A stretch of DNA of 64,000 nucleotides from an uncultured Akkermansia sp. (GTDB lineage Bacteria > Verrucomicrobiota > Verrucomicrobiia > Verrucomicrobiales > V1-33), in NCBI GenBank assembly GCA_964523105.1, contig CAZFZN010000003.1, forward strand, positions 251,707-315,706, given 5' to 3'. The first letter of the stretch is position 1, and the number at the start of each line of letters is the position of its first letter. This document shows, piece after piece, positions 3,474 to 57,180 of this stretch. Made by a program: the position numbers and the translations under genes. The notes beneath the pieces are model-generated. The model was not told the DNA's origin, ran no database searches, and saw only the letters and a program-made list of their open reading frames with translations.

Positions 3474-3580
3474 GAGGTTGGTTTATTGGGAAGCTTTGGC
3501 GGGTGTGGTTTCCTGCAAAAGAGAAGGGAGGCGGGCTGCAGAATTCCGGATGACGCTGGCTGATGGCAGGATGTTGAGGG

Positions 3581-5485
3581 TTAGCGGGGAGTGGCCATGG
3601 CGCCCATCATGTCAGACAGGAAGACGCAGAGGCAGGTATTGCAGCCGGGACCGGGAACGGCCGGCGGGACAGGCAGACCGAGGTCCGTGAAAGGTTTGCT
3701 GCGGGCGGCGGCCGCGAGGGCGCGGGAAAGGGTTTGGTCGCCAAGGTGGCGGCGCTGCAGGCTGCCGGTTTCCTTTTTACGCTCCGCCCCGGTCATGGCG
3801 AAAACGGAGACGCCTTCCTTGATGGTCTCGAGTCCTTTGATGCGGTCGAGATTTTCAGGGTCCACAGCCGTCGGGTCTTTACTGAGAATGATGAGATCGG
3901 CGAGCTTGCCGGGCTCGATGGAGCCCTTGGTCTTTTCCTCAAAGTGCTGCCATGCGGCCCAGAGGGTCATGGCCTTGAGGGCGGTCATCACATCCACGCG
4001 CTGATCGGGGCCAATGATGTCACCGGAACGGCTGCGGCGGGTGACGGTGGCGTCCAGCACGCGCATGGAGTCGGGGAAGGCGACGGGAGCATCGTGGTGA
4101 GAGGTGAATTTCATGCCGCGCTTCACACACCAGCCGGTGGGCGAGATGTTATTGGAGAGTGCAGGCCCGACGGTGTGATCGCGGTGCCAGTCGCCCCAGT
4201 AGAAGGTGTGCATGGGGAAGAGCGAGGGCAGCACACCGAGGGCGTTGCAGGAATCCACCTGGTCCTCACGGAGGAATTGGCCATGGATGAGCACTGGGCG
4301 GCGGTCACCCGCACCATGCTTTTTCTGTGCGGCATCAAGGCAGGCGATCAACTGATCCGAGGCGGCCTCGCCGTTGCTGTGGGTGAGGATCTGGATGTTG
4401 TTCGCGTAGGCCCAGTCGATGGCGTCGCGCACCTGTTCGGCCTGCGCGGCAGGATAGCCGGCATAGCCGGGCGGGTAGTTGCCCACAGGCTTGTAATAAG
4501 GCCGGTCGCGCCATGCCGTGAACCACTGCGGCGAGCCATCGATGGTGAGCTTGGCGCCGCCGACGCGGAAGCGGTTGTTGTAAGTGGCGCTGAACTTCGC
4601 CTTTATCATCTCACGGTCCACGAGGACGTCAGGATAGGTGACGACATCAATCTTGAGGCCGCCGGCATCCGCGACGGCCTGCATGGCCTTCACCGAAGAG
4701 GGCATGGAGCGGCCTTCCTGAGCCGTGGTGTAGCCAAAGCGGGCCCACAATTGTCCTCCTGCCTTCATGAAGGTGTCAGCGCCGTCCGGCCCGATGCGGC
4801 CAAGAAGTTTCAGCAGCGCGGTGTAATGCGCCGTCTCCTCCAGTGTTCCACTTGGTTCCTTGCCGTCCGCCTTGCGTTGGATAACGCCGCCCGCGGGATT
4901 GGTGGATTCAGCAGTAATGCCGCATACCTCCAGAGCCTTCGAATTCGCGCTGCTGAGGTGGCCGGATTGATGCATAATGATCACCGGGAATTCCGTGGTG
5001 ACCGCGTCCAGTTCCTCGCGCGTCGGGTGGCGCAGCTCGGCGAGCTGGGAGTTGTCGTAGCCAAACCCCACGACCACCTGGATACTGACCACCGCCTCTC
5101 TGTTGGCGGCGATCCAGTCCCGCAGGGTCTTTTGGAGGTCGGCGATGTTGCGCACCTCTCCGTCCGGCGGGGCCAGCAGGTTGGCGGAGAGCGCCTGAAT
5201 GCCGCCGCCGAAGACATGGCCATGGGCATCCACGAAACCAGGGAGCATGGCATGGCCCGCAAGGTCCGCGAGCTTTGTGGCGTCGCCTTTCGTCTTCAGT
5301 ACATCGTCCTTTTTCCCCACGGCGAGGATCCTGCCGTCTTTGACCGCGACGGCCTCGGCGCGCGGCGCGGAATCGTTGATGGTGATGACCGGACCACCGT
5401 GGTAGATGACGTCGGCGGTTTGGGCGGAAGCGTGGTTTAATGAGAACGCGCAGACTGCGGCGATGGTTTGATGTTTGATTTTCAT
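3581..5485 (-). CDS. secreted metal-dependent amidohydrolase (Amidohydro_3 / YtcJ-like), paralog A1, with Cys-rich C-terminal tail
   Basis: ATG at 5485 with a signal peptide. LPGFVDAHGHV is the HxH metal motif. ILTHSNGEAA and FTSHHDAPV are also present. By eye it is about 75% identical to 10888..12771. The tail ends GCNTCLCVFLSDMMGAMATPR. Confidence 0.85.
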   Translation of the reverse strand: MKIKHQTIAAVCAFSLNHASAQTADVIYHGGPVITINDSAPRAEAVAVKDGRILAVGKKDDVLKTKGDATKLADLAGHAMLPGFVDAHGHVFGGGIQALSANLLAPPDGEVRNIADLQKTLRDWIAANREAVVSIQVVVGFGYDNSQLAELRHPTREELDAVTTEFPVIIMHQSGHLSSANSKALEVCGITAESTNPAGGVIQRKADGKEPSGTLEETAHYTALLKLLGRIGPDGADTFMKAGGQLWARFGYTTAQEGRSMPSSVKAMQAVADAGGLKIDVVTYPDVLVDREMIKAKFSATYNNRFRVGGAKLTIDGSPQWFTAWRDRPYYKPVGNYPPGYAGYPAAQAEQVRDAIDWAYANNIQILTHSNGEAASDQLIACLDAAQKKHGAGDRRPVLIHGQFLREDQVDSCNALGVLPSLFPMHTFYWGDWHRDHTVGPALSNNISPTGWCVKRGMKFTSHHDAPVAFPDSMRVLDATVTRRSRSGDIIGPDQRVDVMTALKAMTLWAAWQHFEEKTKGSIEPGKLADLIILSKDPTAVDPENLDRIKGLETIKEGVSVFAMTGAERKKETGSLQRRHLGDQTLSRALAAAARSKPFTDLGLPVPPAVPGPGCNTCLCVFLSDMMGAMATPR

Positions 5486-7622: not shown

Positions 7623-8636
7623 TCAGCGGACCACCTCGGGCTTCGGGAAAACCCAGCTTCCGTCGAGCACCTTGGCCTTGGGGCGATACATTCGGACCGT
7701 GTAGTTCCAGCCGGGCATGATGCGGAGATAATTGTCCGCCTTGGGATCTCCGCCAAAGTTCACCGTCACGCTGCCGTCGGCGCCGCGCTTGGCGGTAACG
7801 CTGTTGAGCGAGGCGGCGCTGGCCGGTGCCTCGTAAAAGCCGTCCTTGTTGTAGACGGTGATGGACCAGAAGGCGTCCACCGGCACGTCCTTGACCTTGA
7901 GGCGCATGGCGGTCTCGCCGTCGTTTTGTTTGGGGACTTCGATCAGATAGAGCGCGTCTTTTTCGGCGTTGCCGAAAATGCCGCCGGCGGTGCCGATGAA
8001 ATGGCGCACGTCGTCCGTCTCCTCCTTTTTGCCGAAGGTCCGGCGGCTGTCGGGCATCCAGGGAGTCATGGTCAAGATGGCCTTGCGCAGGTTCGTTAGG
8101 CTCTCCTGATCCCAGTTCAGCACCTCGAAACTGCCGGGGCTGGCCTGGATCACTTTGATCGCGTCCTGGGCCTTGCGCATCTCCTCGATATCGGCCGGGC
8201 TGTTCGGATCCACGAGGGTGCGGAAGGTGACCTGGACATAGCGGGTCCCCATTTCCTCACGGGTGAAGGTGTAGGTGCCGGGCTCATAGATGGCGCGCTG
8301 GATGTAATGATCCTGGTTGATCACCAGCATGGATTGGAAGCGGCCGCCGATCTCGGGTTTGACGATGGTGAGCGGTTGGGTCAGGTCGAACACGCCGGTG
8401 CTATAGGGTGTGTCGCGGTTCATGCGGATCACGATTTGCTTGTCCACATCGACCGGACCGCGCTCATGGTGGAACTTACCGAAGGCTCCTTGCTCGAAGC
8501 GCTGTTTGAAGTAGCGATCGGTCTCGGCACGCACAAAGGTATCGACAGTGACAGGAATCGTCTCGGTCGCTGCGAGCATGCTGGTGGCCAGCAGGCAGAT
8601 GGCGGGAACAAGGGCTTTGAAGATCTGTTTCTTCAT
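7623..8636 (-). CDS. secreted DUF1254/DUF1214 domain protein
   Basis: ATG at 8636 with a signal peptide. NRDTPYSTGVFDL..GGRFQSMLVINQDHY is DUF1254-like and AFWSITVYNKDGFY is DUF1214-like (recalled motifs). Confidence 0.8.
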   Translation of the reverse strand: MKKQIFKALVPAICLLATSMLAATETIPVTVDTFVRAETDRYFKQRFEQGAFGKFHHERGPVDVDKQIVIRMNRDTPYSTGVFDLTQPLTIVKPEIGGRFQSMLVINQDHYIQRAIYEPGTYTFTREEMGTRYVQVTFRTLVDPNSPADIEEMRKAQDAIKVIQASPGSFEVLNWDQESLTNLRKAILTMTPWMPDSRRTFGKKEETDDVRHFIGTAGGIFGNAEKDALYLIEVPKQNDGETAMRLKVKDVPVDAFWSITVYNKDGFYEAPASAASLNSVTAKRGADGSVTVNFGGDPKADNYLRIMPGWNYTVRMYRPKAKVLDGSWVFPKPEVVR

Positions 8637-48888: not shown

Positions 48889-49572
48889 ATGAAAGCTCTG
48901 CTGCTCTTCGTGTTTCTGACCTGTTTTTCCCTGCCGCTGTTCGCCAAAGGCACTGGCGCCAAAGAGGCCCTGCGCACCCTCGCGCGGCTCCGCGGTGCGT
49001 CGTGGCTGGAACGCGTCATTCAAATGAACGGCGACCGCGGACAGGACCAGCCGGCGACGTGGCACATCATCGCCGCCGGCGCCAAAGGCGGGCTCCAGGA
49101 GTTTTTTGTCAATGCGAAGGGCATCGTTACGGAAGGCCCGATTCCGCCGGAGATTGCGGCGAAACTGAACGGCCCGGTCGTGACTCCGAAGAAGTTCGTC
49201 ACCGATTCGACGCACGCCTTTGTCGCCGCCGAGAAAGTGGCCAAACAGCAGCGGTTCGGGTTCGACTCCGCGAATTTCCGCCTCCGCTGCGCGCCGAACT
49301 CGACGCAGCCTAACTGGTATATGGAACTGCTGGACGCCAATGGCTTCAAGCTGTCGGAAGTGCGTGTGTCCGCCACCAGCGGCCGGGTGACGCATGCCGT
49401 GGTTTTCCCGCAGCCGGTGCCTCCGGGGCCGCCGCCCACGCAGACGCAGCGGGCCATGGAGCAGGCGCGCAAGGCCGTGAACAGCGGCGTCAAGAGCGTT
49501 GGCCGCGGCTTCCAGAAAGCCGGCTCGTGGATCTCCCGTCAGTTCACTCCGAAGTCCGCGCCGCAGCCCTGA
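48889..49572 (+). CDS. secreted hypothetical protein
   Basis: ATG 48889 gives MKALLLFVFLTCFSLPLFAKG, a signal peptide. The coding-like composition continues to the stop at 49572. The upstream part of the ORF-track frame (48469-48888) overlaps the DUF1552 gene and was rejected. Confidence 0.55.
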   Translation: MKALLLFVFLTCFSLPLFAKGTGAKEALRTLARLRGASWLERVIQMNGDRGQDQPATWHIIAAGAKGGLQEFFVNAKGIVTEGPIPPEIAAKLNGPVVTPKKFVTDSTHAFVAAEKVAKQQRFGFDSANFRLRCAPNSTQPNWYMELLDANGFKLSEVRVSATSGRVTHAVVFPQPVPPGPPPTQTQRAMEQARKAVNSGVKSVGRGFQKAGSWISRQFTPKSAPQP

Positions 49573-49610: not shown

Positions 49611-51059
49611 ATGCCTCTCCCGTCCCTCCCCATCCTCCGCCTTGGCAAAGCCTACACGTCGCTCGACGTCGCCGAGGTCACCAACGTCGCCACCGGCGCG
49701 CCCGTCGTCCGCGTCAGTCAGGCGAACACCGGACTCATCGCACGCGATCTTCCGGAAACGGCAAAGTCCCGCGCTGCTCTCCGCCGCATTCCGGCCCGGG
49801 AGCGCGTCGAGATGGTCCGCCGGGCCGGGGAGATTTTTCAAAACGACACTCTCCCGCTCGGTGACGACGGCACCATGCAGTCGCCTGACGACTATCTGCT
49901 CCAGCTCGCCGGCACCAGCGGCCTGCCGCATTCGCTCATCCGCATGAACATGAAGCGCCTCGGCGGCATCTTTGCGGACATCGGCATCATCCTGCGCGGC
50001 CTCACGCGCGGCATGGACCTCGACGTGCTCGATCGCGGCTACGGCGTGCAGGGCGGCGCGCCGGTTTCCTATCATTGCGTCACCGACAATCTTGCCGTTA
50101 TCCTGCCCAGCAATTCCCCCGCAGTGAATGCCCTGTGGATTCCCGCCATCGCGCTCGGCGTGCCGGTCATTCTCAAACCCGGACGCGAAGAACCATGGAC
50201 GCCGTGGCGCGTCATTCAGTCGCTCATCAAAGCCGGCATCCCGCGCGAGGCTTTTGGATTCTATCCCACCGGCCACGACGGCTCCGGCCTGCTGCTGCGC
50301 CGCGCGGGACGCGTGATGATGTTCGGCGACGACGCCACCGTCGCGCAGTATGCCAGCGACCCGCGCGTGGAAGTTCACGGCAGCGGGCGCAGCAAGATCC
50401 TCATCGGTGAGGATAAAATCGAGCAGTGGCGCGACTACCTGCCCGTGCTGGTGGAAAGCGTCAGCGCCAACAGCGGACGCAGTTGCATCAACACCTCCGC
50501 CATCGTCGTGCCGCGCTATGCGGAGGAAATCGCCCGCGCCGTCGCGCAGGAATTGCTGACGATGGTCCCCCGCGCCGCCGATGATCCGGAAGCAACGCTC
50601 AGCGGCTTCGCCAATCCGGCCATGCCCGAGTGGATCGACAGCACCATCACCGACGGCCTGACCACTCCCGGCGCCGAAGACGTCTCCATGATTCTCCGCA
50701 ACGGCACCCCGCGCCGCGCCAGCCGCGACGGCATGAACTACCTGCTGCCCACGATCATTCACTGCAGCAATTTCGACCACCCGCTGGCCAACCGCGAGTT
50801 CCTCTTCCCCTTCGCCAGCGTGACGAACGTCCCCCAGGCCGCCATGCTGGATACGATAGGCCCCAGCCTCGTCGTCACCGCCATCACCGGCGACAAAGCC
50901 TGGATGACGCAACTGCTCGAAAGCCCGCACATCGACCGCCTTAACCTCGGCCCCACGCCCACCAATCGCGTCCAGTGGGACCAGCCCCACGAAGGCAACC
51001 TCTTCGAGTTCCTCTACAAACGCCGCAGCATCGGCTTGCCGCAGGAGATGGCGGCGTAA
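49611..51059 (+). CDS. aldehyde dehydrogenase superfamily protein (divergent)
   Basis: ATG at 49611. The motifs are ILPSNSPAVNALW, VILKPGREEPWTP, MFGDDATV and ANSGRSCINTSAIVV (the catalytic-Cys context). Confidence 0.7.
   Translation: MPLPSLPILRLGKAYTSLDVAEVTNVATGAPVVRVSQANTGLIARDLPETAKSRAALRRIPARERVEMVRRAGEIFQNDTLPLGDDGTMQSPDDYLLQLAGTSGLPHSLIRMNMKRLGGIFADIGIILRGLTRGMDLDVLDRGYGVQGGAPVSYHCVTDNLAVILPSNSPAVNALWIPAIALGVPVILKPGREEPWTPWRVIQSLIKAGIPREAFGFYPTGHDGSGLLLRRAGRVMMFGDDATVAQYASDPRVEVHGSGRSKILIGEDKIEQWRDYLPVLVESVSANSGRSCINTSAIVVPRYAEEIARAVAQELLTMVPRAADDPEATLSGFANPAMPEWIDSTITDGLTTPGAEDVSMILRNGTPRRASRDGMNYLLPTIIHCSNFDHPLANREFLFPFASVTNVPQAAMLDTIGPSLVVTAITGDKAWMTQLLESPHIDRLNLGPTPTNRVQWDQPHEGNLFEFLYKRRSIGLPQEMAA
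50984..51059 (+). repeat. 76-bp direct repeat, copy A (the functional 3' end of the aldehyde dehydrogenase gene, encoding PHEGNLFEFLYKRRSIGLPQEMAA*)
   Basis: It aligns without gaps to 51808-51883 with 9 mismatches in 76 positions (my manual count). Confidence 0.85.
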
Positions 51060-51129
51060 AACTCGTTGGCATCCGGGCCATCTCAACTACCTTTGCCCCA
51101 TGCCCTCCGCACACACTCAATCCGCCATC

Positions 51130-51372
51130 ATGGAACGTGTCGTCCGCCCTGCGCGGGCGAAGATGACGAAGGCCGCTGCGAAGGGATTGCTCCAGCTTCA
51201 GTTCACGCCCGCAGACCACCGGCGCATGAGCCGTCTGCTGACGGCGGCACAGTCCGGTGCCTTGACGCCGGCTCAGGCCTTAGAACTTGAGAACTACCGC
51301 AACGTGGGGCGCATGGTGGACCTCCTGCACAGTCAGGCCCGACTCACACTCCGGCCCGCCGCCGCTCGTTGA
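51130..51372 (+). CDS. small conserved partner protein of HNH endonuclease (unknown function)
   Basis: ATG is at 51130 (alternative at 51100). LQLQFTPADHRRMSRLLTAAQSGALTPAQALELENYRNVGRMVDLLHSQARLTL resembles the small ORFs I recall preceding this HNH type in cyanobacteria and other phyla. Its stop lies 3 nt before the HNH start. Confidence 0.55.
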   Translation: MERVVRPARAKMTKAAAKGLLQLQFTPADHRRMSRLLTAAQSGALTPAQALELENYRNVGRMVDLLHSQARLTLRPAAAR

Positions 51373-51375
51373 TTT

Positions 51376-51780
51376 ATGGCTCGTGTGCCTCGTCGTTTGC
51401 TGGATGCGGTGCGCCGCAGAGCGGACGGGCGCTGTGAGTATTGCCGGCTGCCGGAGCAATGCACCTCGCTGGCTTTCCAGCCGGATCACATCATCGCCGT
51501 CAAACACAGCGGACGCACGCACGAGGCCAATCTCGCCTGGGCCTGCTTCTACTGTAACAGTTACAAAGGGGCCTGCATCGCCGGTCCGGATCCTGCCACC
51601 GGCAAGGTCACCCGCTTGTTTCATCCGCGATTCGACGGCTGGGCGGAGCACTTTCGCTGGGCCGGCGCCGCTCTGGCAGGCCGCACGGATATCGGTCGCG
51701 CCACCATCGCCGTGCTCAGCATCAATCACCCGGACGCCATCCGCCTCCGCCGCTCCCTCATGCGCGAAGGGCTGTTCTGA
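51376..51780 (+). CDS. HNH endonuclease
   Basis: CEYCRLPE...FQPDHIIAVKHSGRTHEANLAWACFYCNSYKG carries the HNH/Zn-finger motifs CxxC...DH...N...CxxCN. Confidence 0.85.
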   Translation: MARVPRRLLDAVRRRADGRCEYCRLPEQCTSLAFQPDHIIAVKHSGRTHEANLAWACFYCNSYKGACIAGPDPATGKVTRLFHPRFDGWAEHFRWAGAALAGRTDIGRATIAVLSINHPDAIRLRRSLMREGLF

Positions 51781-51807
51781 ATCTCTGCCGGCTTCATCCC
51801 AGAGAAG

Positions 51808-51883
51808 GCCCCACGAAGGCAACCTTTTCGAGTTCCTCTACAAACGCCGCAGCACCGGCGTGCCCCGGGAACTGGCGGCATAG
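51808..51883 (+). repeat. 76-bp direct repeat, copy B (orphan gene-end remnant encoding PHEGNLFEFLYKRRSTGVPRELAA*)
   Basis: It has the same length as copy A and retains the reading frame, with its stop codon at the equivalent position. Confidence 0.85.
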
Positions 51884-51981
51884 TGTCTGATGCGCCCGGC
51901 CCGAATTCTTTGAAAGTGCCGGCAGAACCGGAACTGATTTAGCTGGAAATCCGTGGCTCTGTCGCGCGTAGTGTTCAGTCT

Positions 51982-52770
51982 ATGAAAACTCTTCGCCTCG
52001 CAGCTCTCGCCGCCCTGCCCGTGCTCGCCGCCGCCATTGCCCTGGCGCAGCAGGACAGCAAATCTGCTTCGACTGCACCGGCCGCGGTAACTGAGCCCGG
52101 CTTCGTTTCGATTTTCGACGGGCAGTCGCTCAAGGGCTGGCATGTGAGTGCGAAGAGCGGGCACTCGCGCACGAGCAAGAACGAAAGCGGCGGGCGCTGG
52201 GTGGTGGAGAACGGCGCCATCACGGGCAGTCAGGATATTCCGGGCAATGGCGGGCTGGTGATGACGGATGAGGAGTTCGGCGATTTCGAAGTCGCGCTGG
52301 AGATGAACAACGACTTCGGCCCGGACAGCGGGTTGTTCCTGCGCAGCACGGAGGATGGCAAGGCGTGGCAGGCGATGATCGATTATCATGCCGGCGGAAA
52401 TCTCATGGGCATCTACGGCGAAGGGCTGGGCGGGAAGCCGCACGTGAGGAATTACAACTTCAAGACGCTGGTGACGGAGATCGAGGATAAGAAAACCGGC
52501 GAACCGCCCACCCCGCTGCCGGTGTTGCCGGCAGCGTGGCCTTACTTCTGGCGCGCCGGGCAGTGGAATGAACTGCGCGCGCGCATCGAGGGCAATCCGC
52601 CGCACATCACCACATGGATCAACGGCGTGAAGATCATGGAGTGGCAGGAGAAGGAGGTGCGGCATCCGGAGAAGGGCCGCATCGCGCTCCAGGTGCATGG
52701 CGGCGGCGATCACACCAAAGAGTTCGTGCGCTACCGCAACATCCGCGTGAAGCGGCTGGGCGGAGAATGA
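51982..52770 (+). CDS. secreted DUF1080 (3-keto-disaccharide hydrolase-like) domain protein
   Basis: A signal peptide is present. The motifs are GFVSIFDGQSLKGW, F.DFE...E...... NSG.F.R-like and GRIALQVHGGG...V.YRNIRVK. Confidence 0.8.
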   Translation: MKTLRLAALAALPVLAAAIALAQQDSKSASTAPAAVTEPGFVSIFDGQSLKGWHVSAKSGHSRTSKNESGGRWVVENGAITGSQDIPGNGGLVMTDEEFGDFEVALEMNNDFGPDSGLFLRSTEDGKAWQAMIDYHAGGNLMGIYGEGLGGKPHVRNYNFKTLVTEIEDKKTGEPPTPLPVLPAAWPYFWRAGQWNELRARIEGNPPHITTWINGVKIMEWQEKEVRHPEKGRIALQVHGGGDHTKEFVRYRNIRVKRLGGE

Positions 52771-53781: not shown

Positions 53782-56700
53782 ATGGCGACAGCGGATGACA
53801 CGACTGCGATGCGCTTCGGAAATTACGAAGTGCTGACAAGGCCCGACGGCAAACCAGATGAACTGGGACGCGGCGGGTTTGGACGCACGTACCGGGCGCG
53901 GCACATCTTTCTCGGCACCGAGGTGGCGCTCAAGGTGATCATCGACCGGCTTGCGTTCGACGAGACGGCGAAGAAGCGGTTTCTCAAAGAGGCGCGCGAG
54001 GCGGCGCGGCTCAATCACCCGGGCATCGCCCGCATCACTGACTTCGGCGAGGAGGAGGGCACGTTTTTCTACGCGATGGATCTGTGCCGCGACGGCGATC
54101 TGAAGGAATACGTGCGCCGCCGCGGGCCGCTGCCGCCGGCGGAGGCGCTGGAACTGATTCGCCAGACGGCGGAGGCGCTGAGCTATGCGCACGGTCACGG
54201 CATTCTGCACCGCGACATCAAGCCGTCGAATCTGCTCATCGTGATGGACAGCGGCACGCCGCAGGTGAAATTGATAGACTTCGGACTGGTGCGCCGCATT
54301 GCCCACAACGCGGACGAGACGATGGAGGCGGCCTCGCCTTCGCAGTGGTCGCCGGTCTTTGCCAGCCCGGAGCAGATTCGCGAACTGCCGCTGGACGAGC
54401 GCACGGATATTTTCTCGCTGGGCATGACCGCGTGGTATTTGCTGCGGGGCAGCGGGCCGGTGGACGGCAGCACGCATGAAATCGTGGCCGAGCGGCTCGG
54501 TTCCGAAAGCTATGAATCCCGGCTGCCCGCCTCGCTCCAGGGCGTGACGCGCCGCGTCGTGGCCCGCATGGTGGAGAAGGCCGCGGACCGCCGCTATCGC
54601 CAGTGTTCCGAACTGCTCGACGACCTGCGGCACGCCCTGAGCGGCACCCCGGCGGAGCCGCCGCGCGGCGTGCAGAGCATGGCGGAGCGGTTCGTGCTGC
54701 AGCCGGCGGGGCGCGAGTACGCCGGCGAGGTTTTTCGCGGTCACGAAACGACCACAGGCCGGCCCGTGCGCGTCACCCGGGTGCACCGGGAGCATGAGCC
54801 GGAAACTCTCGCGGCGGCGGCCGAAAAAGTCAGGGCGCTCGCGGCGGCCGGAGCGCCGGGCCTCATTCCTCTGCTCGAAATGTCGGAGTTCTCCGACGGC
54901 ATGGCCATTATCGAGGAGGAAGTGTCAGGCCGGAGTGTGGAGGAAACCCTGCGCCGTGAAGGTGCGGTGCCGCTGGCGAAGCTGGCGACGATCCTGTGGG
55001 ATGCGGCGACTGGAGTGGACACGGCCGTGAAGTGCGGCGCCGTGCCGGGCACGCTGGATCAGGCCATGTTCACCGGGGTGGACCGCAGTCCGGTGGACTG
55101 GAATGCGGCGCAGATTTTTTTCCCCGTGAAAGTGATCGCGGATACTGCGGACTGGGTGCGGGAGGCGGACGTGACCGCTGCGCCCGTGCCGGCTTCGCCG
55201 CTGAAGTCGTTCGCCAGCCTCGTCTATCTCGGCGTGGGCGGCCGGCATGTCAGGCCCCAGGCGCTGCATTCCTCCTCCGCCTGTATTCCGATCCCTGGAC
55301 TCAGCGCGGGCGGGAATCGCCTCCTGGCCGGTGCTTTGTCAGGAGAATCACAGCCGGAGAACTGCCTCGCGCTGCTGCAGTCGCTGCTCGCTGCGGAGGC
55401 GGTGCCGGCCGAGAGTGTGGCGCGGCGATCGCGCGAGCGTCAGCACCGGATTGCGGTGGACCGCTCCGCCACCGCGGAGCGTGCCGCCCGCACCACCACC
55501 GGCACCCGCACTGCGACCGCCGCCGCGCGCACCGCCACCGCCGCGCGCACTGCCACGGCCCCTCCGCCTCTGCCGCCGGAGGCGCCGCCAGCCACTGGCA
55601 TTACCGAAACGGTGCGCATGGAGTTTCTCGGCCGCATCGAGGCCAGCGCGCGCCAGGCGAAGGAGCATGCCAACGAAACACTCCGCGTGAAGCTGCCGCC
55701 CGGACGCGATGATGCAGAACTCTGCCAGTTTCAAATCGAGGCGCGCAAATGGGCCCGGGAAGCCGCTTCCGTGCACCAGCACGCGCAGGAAATGACGGCG
55801 GCGGGAACTCTCCATGCCGCCGCGGTGAAAGACCTGACCGATTCCGCCGCCGCCGCGGCCGCGGAAGTGGCGCGCCTGCTCGCCATGGCGCGCGGTCTCG
55901 CCGCGGATGTCCATGTGCCGGTCGAGGAAACCCAGTACGAGCCGCTGTCGGCCACGGTGCCGGTGCCGCCATCGGTTCCGCTGATGGATGCGCCCGCGCC
56001 GCTGCCGCAACCCGCGCCGCCGGGCGGAGTGCCTTTCCCGCGGCACGAAATGCCGCCCCAGCCTCCTCCTCCGGAGATTCACGCCGCCTCTGCGCCGCCT
56101 GAACTGCGGCCGGTCCGCCATGAGCCGGCGCCACCGGCTCCGGTTCCCCTGACACCGCTCCCCACCGTTCCGAAAAAGGGGAATCCCATGGTGGCGGCTT
56201 CCATCGTCCTCCTGCTCTGCGCCCTCGGCGCCGGCGGATGGTATTATTACGAGTTCCACTGGAAAAAGAAATCCGGCGCCACCGTCGTGGCGGACAACAC
56301 CCCGCCCCGGGAAAACGGCAAAGGCAACGGCCCCGACAAAGAACCGGTGAAGGACCCTGTCAAAGATCCGGTCAAGGATCCCGTGAAGGATCCCGTCAGC
56401 ATTTCCACTCCGCCTCCGCCGCCTCCGCCGTCGAAGCGCGAAGTGGTCGTCATGTTCACCGGTGACCTGCCGGAGAGTGACGACGTCTCCTTTCGCGGGG
56501 TGAAGAACAAGCCGCCGATGACGAAGTCCGGCGGCGGTGCGGTCTTCGCATTCGAACTCGAGCCCGGTGCGCCGGACCCCGAGCCCATTGTCAACGGCGA
56601 GCGGTTTTCCAGCACGCTGGTGAGCCGTGAGTCCGACCGCATCACCTACAAACTCAAGCGCCAGCTGCCGCCCAACAAGCTGCGCCTCCTTGGCATCGAG

Positions 56701-57180
56701 GCGCGCGATCCCGCTAGTGTCACCATCGGCGGCAGAAGCGGAAAAATGGAGGACGACGAACTCGTTTTCGAGCGCGCCGCCGACGACAAAGGGAATTTCA
56801 CCCTCGATACCCCGGCATGGATCGTCGTGGACAAACCCGAGTGGGCCGGCCCGGGCGAGTGGGAGGCGGAAATGGAACTGGCGCTTCAGGAGGTGACACT
56901 CAAAGCCGGTGCCAAAGTCCCGTGGCGCGCCGTCATTTTCACCGCCGTGAACCCCTCCGTGCTGCCGGACCTCGGCGACTATTCCGGCGACCTCGGCGCC
57001 TCCAGCGCCGGTGCCTCGGATGTGAAATTCGATTTCATCTCCGGGGTGCTCGATTCCGTGGTGCTGCCCGCCGGAGACTGGAAAGTGACCTGGCAAAGCG
57101 GTGACACCTCCACACCCGACAAGGATGGCGGGACGTTCACCGTCAAATACGGGGAACAGTCGAATCTGACAGTTCCCTGA
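53782..57180 (+). CDS. Ser/Thr protein kinase followed by a degenerate kinase-like region, low-complexity linkers, a TM segment and a beta-rich extracytoplasmic C-terminal region
   Basis: The kinase motifs are GRGGFGRTY, VALKVI, HRDIKPSN, DFGLVR and ASPEQ. A second region (YAGEVFRGHETTTGRPVRV...LIPLLE..AIIEEEVSGRSVEE) lacks the HRD and DFG motifs. ARTATA and KDPV repeats are present. The TM segment is MVAASIVLLLCALGAGGWYYY. Confidence 0.85.
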   Translation: MATADDTTAMRFGNYEVLTRPDGKPDELGRGGFGRTYRARHIFLGTEVALKVIIDRLAFDETAKKRFLKEAREAARLNHPGIARITDFGEEEGTFFYAMDLCRDGDLKEYVRRRGPLPPAEALELIRQTAEALSYAHGHGILHRDIKPSNLLIVMDSGTPQVKLIDFGLVRRIAHNADETMEAASPSQWSPVFASPEQIRELPLDERTDIFSLGMTAWYLLRGSGPVDGSTHEIVAERLGSESYESRLPASLQGVTRRVVARMVEKAADRRYRQCSELLDDLRHALSGTPAEPPRGVQSMAERFVLQPAGREYAGEVFRGHETTTGRPVRVTRVHREHEPETLAAAAEKVRALAAAGAPGLIPLLEMSEFSDGMAIIEEEVSGRSVEETLRREGAVPLAKLATILWDAATGVDTAVKCGAVPGTLDQAMFTGVDRSPVDWNAAQIFFPVKVIADTADWVREADVTAAPVPASPLKSFASLVYLGVGGRHVRPQALHSSSACIPIPGLSAGGNRLLAGALSGESQPENCLALLQSLLAAEAVPAESVARRSRERQHRIAVDRSATAERAARTTTGTRTATAAARTATAARTATAPPPLPPEAPPATGITETVRMEFLGRIEASARQAKEHANETLRVKLPPGRDDAELCQFQIEARKWAREAASVHQHAQEMTAAGTLHAAAVKDLTDSAAAAAAEVARLLAMARGLAADVHVPVEETQYEPLSATVPVPPSVPLMDAPAPLPQPAPPGGVPFPRHEMPPQPPPPEIHAASAPPELRPVRHEPAPPAPVPLTPLPTVPKKGNPMVAASIVLLLCALGAGGWYYYEFHWKKKSGATVVADNTPPRENGKGNGPDKEPVKDPVKDPVKDPVKDPVSISTPPPPPPPSKREVVVMFTGDLPESDDVSFRGVKNKPPMTKSGGGAVFAFELEPGAPDPEPIVNGERFSSTLVSRESDRITYKLKRQLPPNKLRLLGIEARDPASVTIGGRSGKMEDDELVFERAADDKGNFTLDTPAWIVVDKPEWAGPGEWEAEMELALQEVTLKAGAKVPWRAVIFTAVNPSVLPDLGDYSGDLGASSAGASDVKFDFISGVLDSVVLPAGDWKVTWQSGDTSTPDKDGGTFTVKYGEQSNLTVP
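56338..56397. repeat. 5 x 12-bp tandem repeat encoding K(E/D)PV
   Basis: The units aaagaaccggtg aaggaccctgtc aaagatccggtc aaggatcccgtg aaggatcccgtc were read directly from the sequence. Confidence 0.85.

Follow-up and report, generated by a model that had tools for sequence, protein, structure and literature searches.

How did a pair of small genes come to lie directly behind an intact aldehyde dehydrogenase (ALDH) gene, enclosed between two copies of that gene's end? The question arises in a stretch of 64,000 nucleotides from an uncultured Akkermansia sp., referred to here as the window. A preliminary description of the window, made from its sequence alone, had noted that the last 76 bp of the ALDH gene recur downstream of a small open reading frame (ORF) and an HNH endonuclease gene, and had read the arrangement as an insertion that brought, or regenerated, a replacement end for its target gene. 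An ungapped comparison of positions 50984-51059 and 51808-51883 reproduced this repeat in its position, its 9 mismatches in 76 bp (88% identity), its common frame and stop position (TAA in the upstream copy, hereafter copy 1; TAG in the downstream copy, copy 2) and its translations, which are PHEGNLFEFLYKRRSIGLPQEMAA for copy 1 and PHEGNLFEFLYKRRSTGVPRELAA for copy 2. A repeat search of the sequence returned the pair 50984-51058 and 51808-51882 at 89% identity, and blastn of the 3.8-kb against the 3.6-kb flanks gave an E-value of 9e-24. The local alignment score of 55 lies far beyond chance, shuffled sequences having reached at most 12 (n = 20), and the similarity breaks off abruptly on both sides. 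A duplication reaching past the stop codon was rejected, as the similarity ends at the stop. The coordinates of the features are collected in Table 1, together with the repeats that we found at other loci.

Table 1. Features of the insertion in the window, and repeats bracketing the same gene pair at 12 other loci.
Feature	Position	Strand	Description	Basis
ALDH gene	49611..51059	+	aldehyde-dehydrogenase family; intact; target gene	Pfam Aldedh, E 4.5e-18
Copy 1 (upstream)	50984..51059	+	functional last 24 codons of ALDH and stop TAA	repeat comparison
Inserted segment	51060..51807	+	748 bp: 40-nt leader, two ORFs, 27-nt trailer	absent from empty site L087
Small ORF	51100..51372	+	90 aa, predicted all-helical; upstream partner of HNH gene	conserved pairing, AlphaFold
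HNH endonuclease gene	51376..51780	+	134 aa (CxxC...DH...N...CxxCN); Cas9-HNH / McrA / PtuB type	Pfam PF01844, E 2.9e-9
Right-hand trailer	51781..51807	+	27 nt; 6-bp inverted repeat TCTCTG...CAGAGA	direct reading
Copy 2 (downstream)	51808..51883	+	non-functional remnant of ALDH 3' end, stop TAG; abuts native spacer	repeat comparison
Native spacer (51884-51981) and hydrolase gene (51982-52770)	51884..52770	+	3-keto-disaccharide-hydrolase family	Pfam PF06439
Repeat at L097			208 bp; end of one gene, intergenic spacer and 5' end of next gene	
Repeat at L111			at least 86 bp, 100% identical	
Repeat at L113			85-92 bp; inside a gene, replaces its last codons	
Repeat at L117			two blocks, 46 and 54 bp	
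Repeat at L121			20 bp	
Repeat at L133			39 bp	
Repeat at L139			42 bp	
Repeat at L144			about 110 bp	
Repeat at L146			294 bp, 98.6% identical; gene 3' end	
Repeat at L156			42 bp	
Repeat at L160			55 bp; lepA 3' end	
Repeat at L164			about 127 bp; gene 3' end	

The ALDH protein is 482 aa long as called on public contigs (e.g., L001), or 510 aa if a GTG at 49527 is used, and its orthologs are 91-95% identical and end at the same position. Duplication took in the sequence from codon -25 to the stop, so that copy 1 completes the ALDH frame and copy 2 decays; ALDH is not disrupted because its stop codon happens to be part of the duplicated target. That the segment between the copies was inserted, as had been proposed, is borne out by a related metagenome contig, L087, whose ALDH gene is 94% identical to that of the window and which represents an empty site: a single ALDH end is followed directly by the spacer and by the same hydrolase gene, which is the direct downstream neighbor of ALDH there. 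Upstream synteny is as in the window (a DUF1552 gene and a 272-aa ORF), and L087 carries MKTLRLAALAAIPVLAAA 183 nt past its ALDH stop, with 84% DNA identity to the window. Behind copy 2, the spacer aligns weakly to the post-ALDH spacer of L087 (25 of 35 columns, P about 0.03). In L087 the sequence is no chimera of the two copies in the window, and the site therefore looks as if it had never been occupied. Neither the cassette nor a second copy of the gene end was present at about 85 ALDH ortholog loci, so the observation named beforehand as evidence against an insertion, relatives that lack the cassette and yet carry both copies, was never made among them. The ancestral order is accordingly ALDH stop, spacer, hydrolase gene, and the present order is ALDH with its terminal 76 bp, insert, second 76 bp, spacer, hydrolase gene. 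This empty-site comparison covers the window locus, one of 13 repeat-bracketed loci.

We then considered where the two gene ends came from, polarizing the 9 mismatches with L087, L005, L006 and L088 and scanning 116 ortholog C-termini. Copy 1 has 3-4 private substitutions relative to L087, L005 and L006 (TTG, GAG, ATG, TAA), and copy 2 has 5-6 (CTT, I>T, CCC, Q>R, GCA, TAG). On the question of which copy follows the local ortholog phylogeny, both fall within one narrow '[VIL]PQELAA' clade, each with its private changes; no foreign replacement gene end is evident, and this part of the original reading was not sustained. A different route by which a donor end could have arrived is one-ended homologous recombination coupled to an illegitimate join (homology-facilitated illegitimate recombination, or imprecise 'homing'), an explanation that we regard as rather unlikely. 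Here a donor from a closely related lineage, with the cassette just behind its own ALDH gene, would have recombined homologously on the left, inside ALDH, and non-homologously on the right, at position -76 of the recipient, such that copy 1 would be the donor's end and copy 2 the recipient's original one. This would account for a repeat that ends precisely with the stop codon, as lineages lose their homology outside the coding region, and the 12% difference between the copies is close to that between orthologs of different lineages (10%). Copy 2 also retains the ancestral GTG..GAA CTG, which copy 1 does not, and sliding divergence reveals a gene that is visibly mosaic between lineages along its whole length, so homologous exchange does occur here. 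The same sliding divergence, however, has no tract of local excess upstream of 50984, which led us to reject a co-conversion tract there, and the 40 nt that follow copy 1 bear no resemblance to the native spacer of any ortholog.

The insert itself consists, as the preliminary description had it, of only the small ORF and the HNH gene, joined by TGA-TTT-ATG such that the HNH gene starts 3 nt past the small-ORF stop. The start of the small ORF had been placed at 51130 and is most likely the ATG at 51100, giving 90 aa: homologs keep an N-terminal 'MP...QSAI(L/M)ERV', and the Met at 51130 aligns with their Leu. An upstream ORF of at least 50 aa is present at 79 of 82 cassette loci (window included), and nearly all of these ORFs align to one family. 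The small protein matched no family in Pfam, NCBIfam or PADLOC, and a word-indexed homolog search returned only 6 close matches. Its AlphaFold model (pLDDT 79) has four helices and found no significant match among PDB folds, the best being YnzC (E 0.55). The HNH protein has 1190 homologs at E<=1e-3, and more than 563 loci of its family exist in genome collections. Residues C20, C23, H38, N52, C57, C60 and N61 are invariant in 26 homologs compared, and its model (pLDDT 93) has its best fold matches in the Cas9 HNH domain, EcoKMcrA, Gme HNH nickase and Septu PtuB. With the catalytic His and Asn, the metal ligands and the zinc-binding CxxC pairs in its sequence, and with this fold, it belongs to the HNH (beta-beta-alpha-metal) nuclease superfamily. 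The initial characterization of the pair as widespread and poorly characterized fits both the many loci at which it occurs and the small ORF's lack of a family.

In agreement with the first report, a domain search of the large ORFs from 36 to 64 kb found neither integrase nor transposase; the window insert has no terminal inverted repeats (P = 0.16), and the 64-kb window holds no second copy of the cassette. Rfam gave no match in 50500-52500, nor did promoter-like or terminator-like sites appear in 50800-52100. DNA homology to the cassette at L004 is limited to 51091-51776, and the trailer is not similar to the trailers of other cassettes. The insert's GC content is host-like (64.4%), with a GC3 of about 75% compared to 80-84% in neighboring genes.

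A survey of other copies of the pair for flanking duplications, which had been suggested as a check, covered loci in Verrucomicrobiota, Planctomycetota, Acidobacteriota and other groups. Bracketing direct repeats were found at 12 of 79 other small-ORF/HNH loci, or 13 of 80 with the window (about 1 in 6, or about 16%), and 66 of the 79 had no detectable repeat; loci of the latter kind may be older insertions or may have been inserted differently. In a control with shifted placements, repeats bracketed 7 of 68 real positions vs 3 of 321 shifted ones (Fisher P = 3e-4). The repeats at the 12 loci are 20-294 bp long (39-294 bp in 11 and 20 bp in one) and 70-100% identical. Pfam confirmed real genes at the repeats, and what is duplicated differs among loci: the 3' end of a gene, intergenic DNA together with the 5' end of a gene, or internal sequence. 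Inserts range from 748 to 1498 bp, and six of them (748-921 bp) are just the two ORFs. In L113 and L164 the stop of the first gene overlaps the start of the second. A search of 13 inserts found no terminal inverted repeats and no common end motifs. At about one in six loci of other phyla, then, the cassette is bracketed by duplications of variable length, often as the two genes alone and with neither transposon ends nor a recombinase. Genomic contexts are diverse across 80 loci. As for the closest homologs, L004 adjoins an amidohydrolase gene, and L169, the closest relative of all (HNH 81% identical), has a different right flank. L103, L114, L122 and L129 share both flanks. With its low copy number and, in places, vertical inheritance, the cassette therefore does not resemble an actively proliferating element.

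Several explanations can be weighed against this wider set of loci. That the bracket arose by chance, or that the ALDH end was duplicated in tandem independently of a cassette that fell in later, is scarcely credible: no ortholog locus has two copies and no cassette, the bracket recurs at 12 other unrelated cassette loci, and shifted control placements are rarely bracketed. For one-ended recombination, L097 would require a donor in which a gene had already been disrupted, given that its duplication comprises a gene end, a spacer and the start of the next gene, and the near-identical repeats of L111, L146 and L117 fit a duplication made in situ more simply. The preliminary description had also invoked the logic of homing elements and of islands that integrate into gene 3' ends. 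This fails because the cassette contexts are unrelated and the duplications, at 20-294 bp, vary in length and are not always 3' ends (L097, L113); the window insertion is neither homing nor site-specific integration at a gene end. Even a recombinase acting in trans, with the cassette as the remnant or satellite of a gene-3'-end integrative element carrying a replacement end (attL/attR), is very improbable. The repeat does cover a gene 3' end in the window, L146, L160 and L164, and one boundary lies 0-8 nt past the stop codon in the window, L146 and L160, which speaks for such an element; against this, no integrase was found in the inserts or in the window's large ORFs at 36-64 kb, the targets are unrelated genes or non-genic DNA with repeats of widely different length, L097 and L113 are not gene-end restorations, and no att-like sequence is common to the inserts. 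Indeed, insert ends and repeats share nothing between loci that could serve as an att core.

Template switching during replication or repair is a further alternative, in which the nascent strand would leave just after the ALDH stop, copy the cassette from another molecule and re-enter the chromosome 76 nt upstream, a route that needs no cassette-specific nuclease or recombinase. The final structure would be identical to that produced by a staggered break, and the variable length of the duplications, the undefined ends of the element and the absent recombinase are all compatible with it. We nevertheless consider it improbable, as inspection of the junctions found no visible microhomology, even in the young L117, L111 and L146, and as it leaves the enrichment of the footprint at this particular cassette unexplained.

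The explanation that we consider probable is that the 76-bp repeat is a long target-site duplication, produced when the 748-bp segment of small ORF and HNH gene was inserted at the ALDH 3' end. The cassette would have arrived as a DNA fragment by horizontal transfer and been joined to the chromosome at a break with cuts 76 nt apart on the two strands, and fill-in of the two single-stranded overhangs would have duplicated the target. The HNH enzyme of the cassette, whose class includes nickases, may itself have made the two nicks, with the join left to host repair; the small ORF most plausibly encodes the nuclease's partner or its inhibitor, as in an antitoxin-like pair. The insertion is old: the copies differ by 12%, and the base composition of the cassette matches that of the host. 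The 66 loci with no detectable repeat and the low copy number of the cassette count against this explanation. So does the exact coincidence of the window duplication's right end with the stop codon, which a staggered random cut does not predict and which we attribute to chance plus selection. In a post hoc test, 3-4 of 26 repeat boundaries lay near stop codons, with a nominal P of 0.004-0.08 depending on the ORF length cut-off; this is unexplained, and we do not count it as a result.

Insertion with long target duplication has been described for restriction-modification (RM) genes by Kobayashi's group (Furuta, Abe and Kobayashi 2010, PMC2853133), where a long-target-duplication insertion in H. 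pylori is credited to Nobusato et al. 2000 (reference 37 therein). The criteria of that screen were direct repeats of more than 30 bp, an empty site with the repeat once and both flanks aligned, and an insert of less than 20 kb with no other mobility genes or mobile-element repeats; inserts had homologs of both restriction and modification genes, with a lone mcrA and an orphan methyltransferase also accepted (PMC2853133). The window agrees with these in repeat length, empty site, insert size and lack of mobility genes. It departs from them in having an HNH nuclease and no methyltransferase, and thus resembles the lone case, a solitary short mcrA-like gene with only an HNH domain that was inserted alone in Burkholderia sp. 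383 with a repeat identity of 384/412 (PMC2853133). The RM insertions and the window have much in common: a unit built on a nuclease gene, direct repeats of variable length from tens to hundreds of bp that sometimes overlap gene 3' ends, a one-copy empty site in a relative, and no transposase, integrase or inverted ends. In contrast to the published cases, which are mostly from Proteobacteria and Campylobacterota and mostly young, the window case is old (88% identity), its unit combines, in conserved fashion, a small helical protein with one of the HNH type (134 aa), and its type of footprint recurs within a single protein family in Verrucomicrobiota, Planctomycetota, Acidobacteriota and further phyla.

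Other known systems share some of these traits. Free-standing homing endonuclease genes, such as phage T4 mobE and the seg genes (PMC2790892), are likewise small HNH genes between conserved genes, with presence/absence polymorphism and an intact neighboring gene; homing, however, works through homologous repair, which places a copy of the gene at the same site without duplicating the target, whereas the cassette is found at unrelated sites with a duplication. Elements that integrate at gene or tRNA 3' ends also leave a direct repeat that holds the gene end and keeps the gene functional, but the cassette has neither an integrase nor a common core, its repeats vary in length, and some of them duplicate sequence other than 3' ends. 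Direct repeats of the IS1634 and IS1549 type can reach hundreds of bp. The long and variable repeats of these two IS4-family elements are discussed in PMC2266710; they share the unusually long, variable target duplications but encode a DDE transposase and have inverted ends, both of which the cassette lacks. The gene organization, in which the small protein's gene leads a short, co-directional pair with coupled or overlapping reading frames, is reminiscent of type II toxin-antitoxin pairs, although the small ORF has no known antitoxin domain. Overall, PtuB has the fold most similar to that of the HNH protein (TM 0.65), and the nearest local matches are McrA and the Cas9 HNH domain, yet there is no PtuA ATPase partner as in Septu and no modification-reading domain as in McrA. 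Our literature search found nothing on this specific small-ORF/HNH pair.

A footprint showing how the pair moves had been expected to be new information. This expectation is borne out only in part, the type of footprint having already been published for restriction genes, including the solitary mcrA-like HNH gene (PMC2853133). The footprint is thus of a rare kind already described, of which the window provides a further example, both compact and recurrent. For annotation, insertion of the cassette explains short orphan gene-end fragments beside HNH genes. Long-target-duplication footprints have gone without a mechanism for the 25 years since they became known (PMC2853133), and they bear on the old open question of how restriction genes, toxin-antitoxin pairs and similar 'selfish' units move between chromosomes without a recombinase. 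One may tentatively postulate, as a real if minority possibility, that the pair moves autonomously, as a type of mobile element still to be characterized, whose own HNH enzyme nicks the two strands tens to hundreds of nt apart, perhaps preferring the ends of reading frames, and whose 0.75-kb cassette is then inserted by host repair with a long target duplication and without a transposase or recombinase. If this were true, the cassette would be the minimal unit that explains the long-target-duplication insertion of restriction genes, seen since 2000. As the cassette is tiny (two genes, about 750 bp) and widespread, with footprints that span all stages of decay between 100% and 70% identity, it offers a practical system for testing the mechanism: whether it is the cassette's nuclease that makes the insertion site, and whether that nuclease is under the control of the small protein.

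A repeat search of the window recovered a direct repeat whose upstream copy is the real end of an aldehyde-dehydrogenase-family gene (ALDH; Pfam Aldedh), and whose downstream copy is separated from it by 748 bp containing two ORFs, a small ORF and an HNH endonuclease gene, which we refer to as the cassette. As the preliminary description had stated, the two copies align without gaps and show 9 mismatches over 76 bp; they share a reading frame, and their stop codons coincide. These stop codons are TAA upstream and TAG downstream. The similarity breaks off sharply, at 50983/50984 on its left side and with the stop codon on its right, and the repeat is far above chance (local score 55, compared with at most 12 in 20 shuffles; blastn E = 9e-24 between the DNA flanking the cassette on its two sides). 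The same description had correctly paired the two genes and noted their 3-nt coupling, but it placed the small ORF at 51130..51372; we read it from the ATG at 51100, because its homologs retain the N-terminal motif 'MP..QSAI(L/M)ERV' and have Leu opposite the Met at 51130. No further cassette copy was found in the 64-kb window, and no integrase or transposase domain among the large ORFs between 36 and 64 kb. Other small addiction-type genes occur near cassettes, namely a BrnT-toxin-family gene about 6 kb downstream in the window (about 57649 onward; 8442-8573 in the fetched public locus L001) and a HicB/HicA pair 3 kb from the cassette in locus L004 (6314-6717). A 1132-aa ORF (53782-57180) adjoins a shikimate-kinase-family gene; its beginning looks kinase-like when the translation is read by eye, it has no precomputed Pfam hit, and it contains a short tandem peptide repeat, DPVKDPVKDPVKDPV.

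Close ALDH orthologs, 91-95% identical at the protein level, occur in metagenomes, and slightly more distant ones carry Verrucomicrobiales names. Across about 85 ortholog loci, the HNH gene, the small ORF and a second ALDH C-terminus were absent from all except three contigs identical to the window. The proposal that an insertion had duplicated the end of the host gene is borne out by an empty site in one relative, L087, where ALDH is 94% identical and the upstream genes (a DUF1552 gene and a 272-aa ORF) are as in the window. There, a single ALDH stop codon is followed by a 183-nt spacer and the start (MKTLRLAALAAIPVLAAA) of a 3-keto-disaccharide-hydrolase-family gene, the same gene that lies 3' of the window cassette (84% DNA identity). 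The spacer 3' of the downstream copy aligned weakly with the L087 spacer (25 of 35 aligned columns, P about 0.03), and the sequence 3' of the upstream copy aligned with nothing in this comparison. Taken together, the L087 gene order and the spacer alignment show that the ancestral order was ALDH, spacer and hydrolase gene, to which the window adds a 748-bp insert and a second version of the final 76 bp of ALDH. Beyond the ALDH stop codon, synteny differs in every close relative other than L087, with RbfA in L005 (7452-7864), a convergent PDZ gene in L006 (7446-7459) and another convergent gene in L088 (7449-7465); given this variation, the ALDH 3' end is a recurrent rearrangement boundary.

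We polarised the mismatches between the copies using L087, L005, L006 and L088. About five changes plus the stop codon are private to the downstream copy (CTT, Ile>Thr, CCC, Gln>Arg, GCA) and about three plus the stop codon to the upstream copy (TTG, GAG, Leu>Met), and where one copy is derived the ancestral state stays in the other. Both copies encode the tail '[VIL]PQELAA', which among 116 orthologs is confined to the closest clade. This excludes a foreign origin for either gene end, and the suggestion that a replacement end was brought in from outside did not hold. Because the single L087 copy shows no chimeric mix of the window's two versions, the L087 site looks never occupied rather than revertant. 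Divergence is 12% between the copies and, over the entire ALDH gene, 10% between the window and L087, the GC content of the cassette is host-like with GC3 only slightly lower, and the insertion event is old. A sliding comparison of the ALDH gene with the same four relatives found no special divergence just 5' of 50984 and revealed a mosaic between lineages: at gene positions 901-1125 the window differs from L087 by 6, 2 and 6 per 75 nt and from L005 by 16, 14 and 17, and at positions 226-375 the pattern is reversed, with the window nearer L005. Since closeness flips along the gene, these alignments suggest that these Verrucomicrobiales lineages have exchanged DNA by homologous recombination.

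A search with the HNH protein finds 1190 homologs at E<=1e-3, and a scan of one genome per species yielded more than 563 HNH loci, 80 of which were fetched; these span Verrucomicrobiota, Planctomycetota, Acidobacteriota, Sorangium, Chloroflexota and others. Of 82 cassette loci (window counted), 79 have an ORF of at least 50 aa, nearly always of one family, directly 5' of the HNH gene; in several, the stop codon of this ORF overlaps the HNH start. DNA similarity among non-orthologous loci is limited to the two ORFs. Four loci from Prosthecobacter-like Verrucomicrobiaceae (L103, L114, L122 and L129), each with HNH at about 4001-4405, carry the cassette in orthologous positions with 74-88% identity in both flanks, for which reason it is vertically inherited and stable there, not recently mobile; compared with L122, L114 has ~700 bp more on the upstream side. 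The catalytic and zinc-binding HNH residues are invariant among homologs, and the structural model (pLDDT 93) matches the Cas9 HNH domain, EcoKMcrA and a Geobacter HNH nickase, with Septu PtuB a match across the whole length. The small protein is modelled as four helices (pLDDT 79), for which structure and family searches returned no significant structural match and no family match.

Aligning the DNA upstream of each cassette to the DNA downstream identified bracketing direct repeats at twelve loci besides the window, so that the footprint does recur at other cassette copies, which the preliminary description had proposed to survey. Scores of at least 20 were obtained for 7 of 68 real placements versus 3 of 321 placements shifted by 1.8-3 kb and tested in the same way (Fisher P = 3e-4). 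The copies are 748-1498 bp apart across loci; at six loci the intervening 748-921 bp consist of just the gene pair plus a short leader and trailer segment. The inserts have neither terminal inverted repeats nor shared end sequences, the trailer inverted repeat of the window is not conserved in other cassettes, and inspection revealed no junction microhomology.

Coordinates and properties of the window insertion and of cassette-bracketing repeats at other loci
Locus	Feature	Coordinates	Size, identity	Description
Window	ALDH	49611-51059 (+)		target gene
Window	Upstream copy	50984-51059	76 bp	boundaries 50984/51059
Window	Small ORF	ATG at 51100	90 aa	first ORF of insert
Window	HNH endonuclease gene	51376-51780	134 aa	PF01844; starts 3 nt past small-ORF stop codon
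Window	Insert trailer	inverted repeat 51782-51805	27 nt	6 bp, TCTCTG, 12 nt, CAGAGA; no T-run
Window	Downstream copy	51808-51883	76 bp	boundary 51883
L146	Repeat	boundaries 3659/5207	294 bp, 98.6%	YHS/TPR gene: last 97 codons, stop, 3 nt
L097	Repeat		208 bp, about 91%	ECF sigma gene last 24 nt, spacer, kinase-STAND gene first ~150 nt
L164	Repeat		about 127 bp, 72%	FAD-binding oxidase gene 3' end
L144	Repeat		about 110 bp	
L113	Repeat		85-92 bp, 96%	within 3' part of convergent gene; insert now supplies its last codons
L111	Repeat		at least 86 bp, 100%	extends to contig end
L160	Repeat	boundary 4494	55 bp, 93%	lepA: last 15 codons, stop, 8 nt
L117	Repeat	2656-2926, 3748-3873	46 + 54 bp	two blocks
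L139	Repeat		42 bp	
L156	Repeat		42 bp	
L133	Repeat	boundary 3608	39 bp	begins 1 nt before end of upstream ORF's stop codon
L121	Repeat		20 bp	marginal

Several loci have further structure. Three repeat blocks are permuted in L164 (2576-3321 and 4501-5155), A-B-C upstream and B-C-A downstream, with block A 99% identical and at the contig end; such an order would come either from the assembly or from a more involved duplication of the FAD-binding gene. The two L117 blocks are collinear with gaps of 172 nt upstream versus 26 nt downstream, a difference that points to one copy having gained or lost about 146 bp after duplication. The L111 insert has, on its left side, about three tandem copies of a ~17-nt unit (CCCCAAGAGCCCC-GGA; about 3500-3560), which separate the target duplication from the small ORF. 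In L126, a shifted control placement ~3 kb downstream of the cassette gave a very strong direct repeat (local score 242) that belongs to a different repeated element and has no relation to the cassette.

At 4 of the 13 loci, one duplication boundary falls close to where a long ORF stops, with offsets of -1 to +8 nt relative to its stop codon (0 nt in the window, +3 in L146, +8 in L160 and -1 in L133). Such boundaries number 3-4 of 26 compared with a background of 0.6-3% per position, giving a nominal, post hoc P of 0.004-0.08, and they may represent chance, selection or a real preference for reading-frame ends. Selection explains the L146 boundary, as the native spacer to the convergent AcrB gene is only 11 nt, and is not obviously the cause in the window. 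The sole reason that ALDH remains intact is that its stop codon lies within the duplicated target; insertions damaging neighbouring genes would have been lost.

With a nuclease unit inserted between direct repeats of variable length (tens to hundreds of bp), one repeat copy in the unoccupied relative, and neither a recombinase nor transposon ends, the window feature belongs to the class 'insertion with long target duplication'. This class was described by Kobayashi's group for restriction-modification genes, first in H. pylori and later across many bacteria with Types I to IV, including a Burkholderia case in which a short mcrA-like gene whose sole domain is HNH was inserted alone; the repeats likewise sometimes overlap gene 3' ends, and the authors, who suspected that double-strand DNA breaks were involved, offered no mechanism (PMC2853133). 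The logic of homing or of gene-end integration, invoked in the preliminary description, is not supported. Homing leaves no duplication and cassette homologs occupy unrelated sites; integrase-type insertion is rejected given no integrase, no common core, variable repeat length and some duplications away from gene ends, and an integrase acting in trans also fits poorly.

The mechanism we propose for the demonstrated features (insertion, duplication, recurrence with this cassette and no transposon-like features) is that the cassette would enter as a DNA fragment and be joined into a break whose two strand cuts lie 76 nt from each other, and the duplication would arise when the overhangs are filled in. 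The cuts may be made by the cassette's own predicted HNH nuclease, whose relatives include nickases, and host repair may perform the joining; the small protein, whose gene is always coupled and comes first, is plausibly a restraint on the nuclease or its partner. One may postulate instead a one-ended homologous recombination completed by an illegitimate join, which would account for the 12% divergence of the window copies and for a repeat that ends with the stop codon but is a poor fit to L097 and to the near-identical repeats. Replication template switching is another candidate, although the microhomology is not visible and the process would lack specificity for this cassette. The footprint had been put forward as new information; it was already published for restriction-modification genes (PMC2853133), and what is new is its recurrence with one compact, widespread two-gene HNH cassette outside restriction-modification. 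This cassette provides a practical handle on an insertion mechanism open since 2000.
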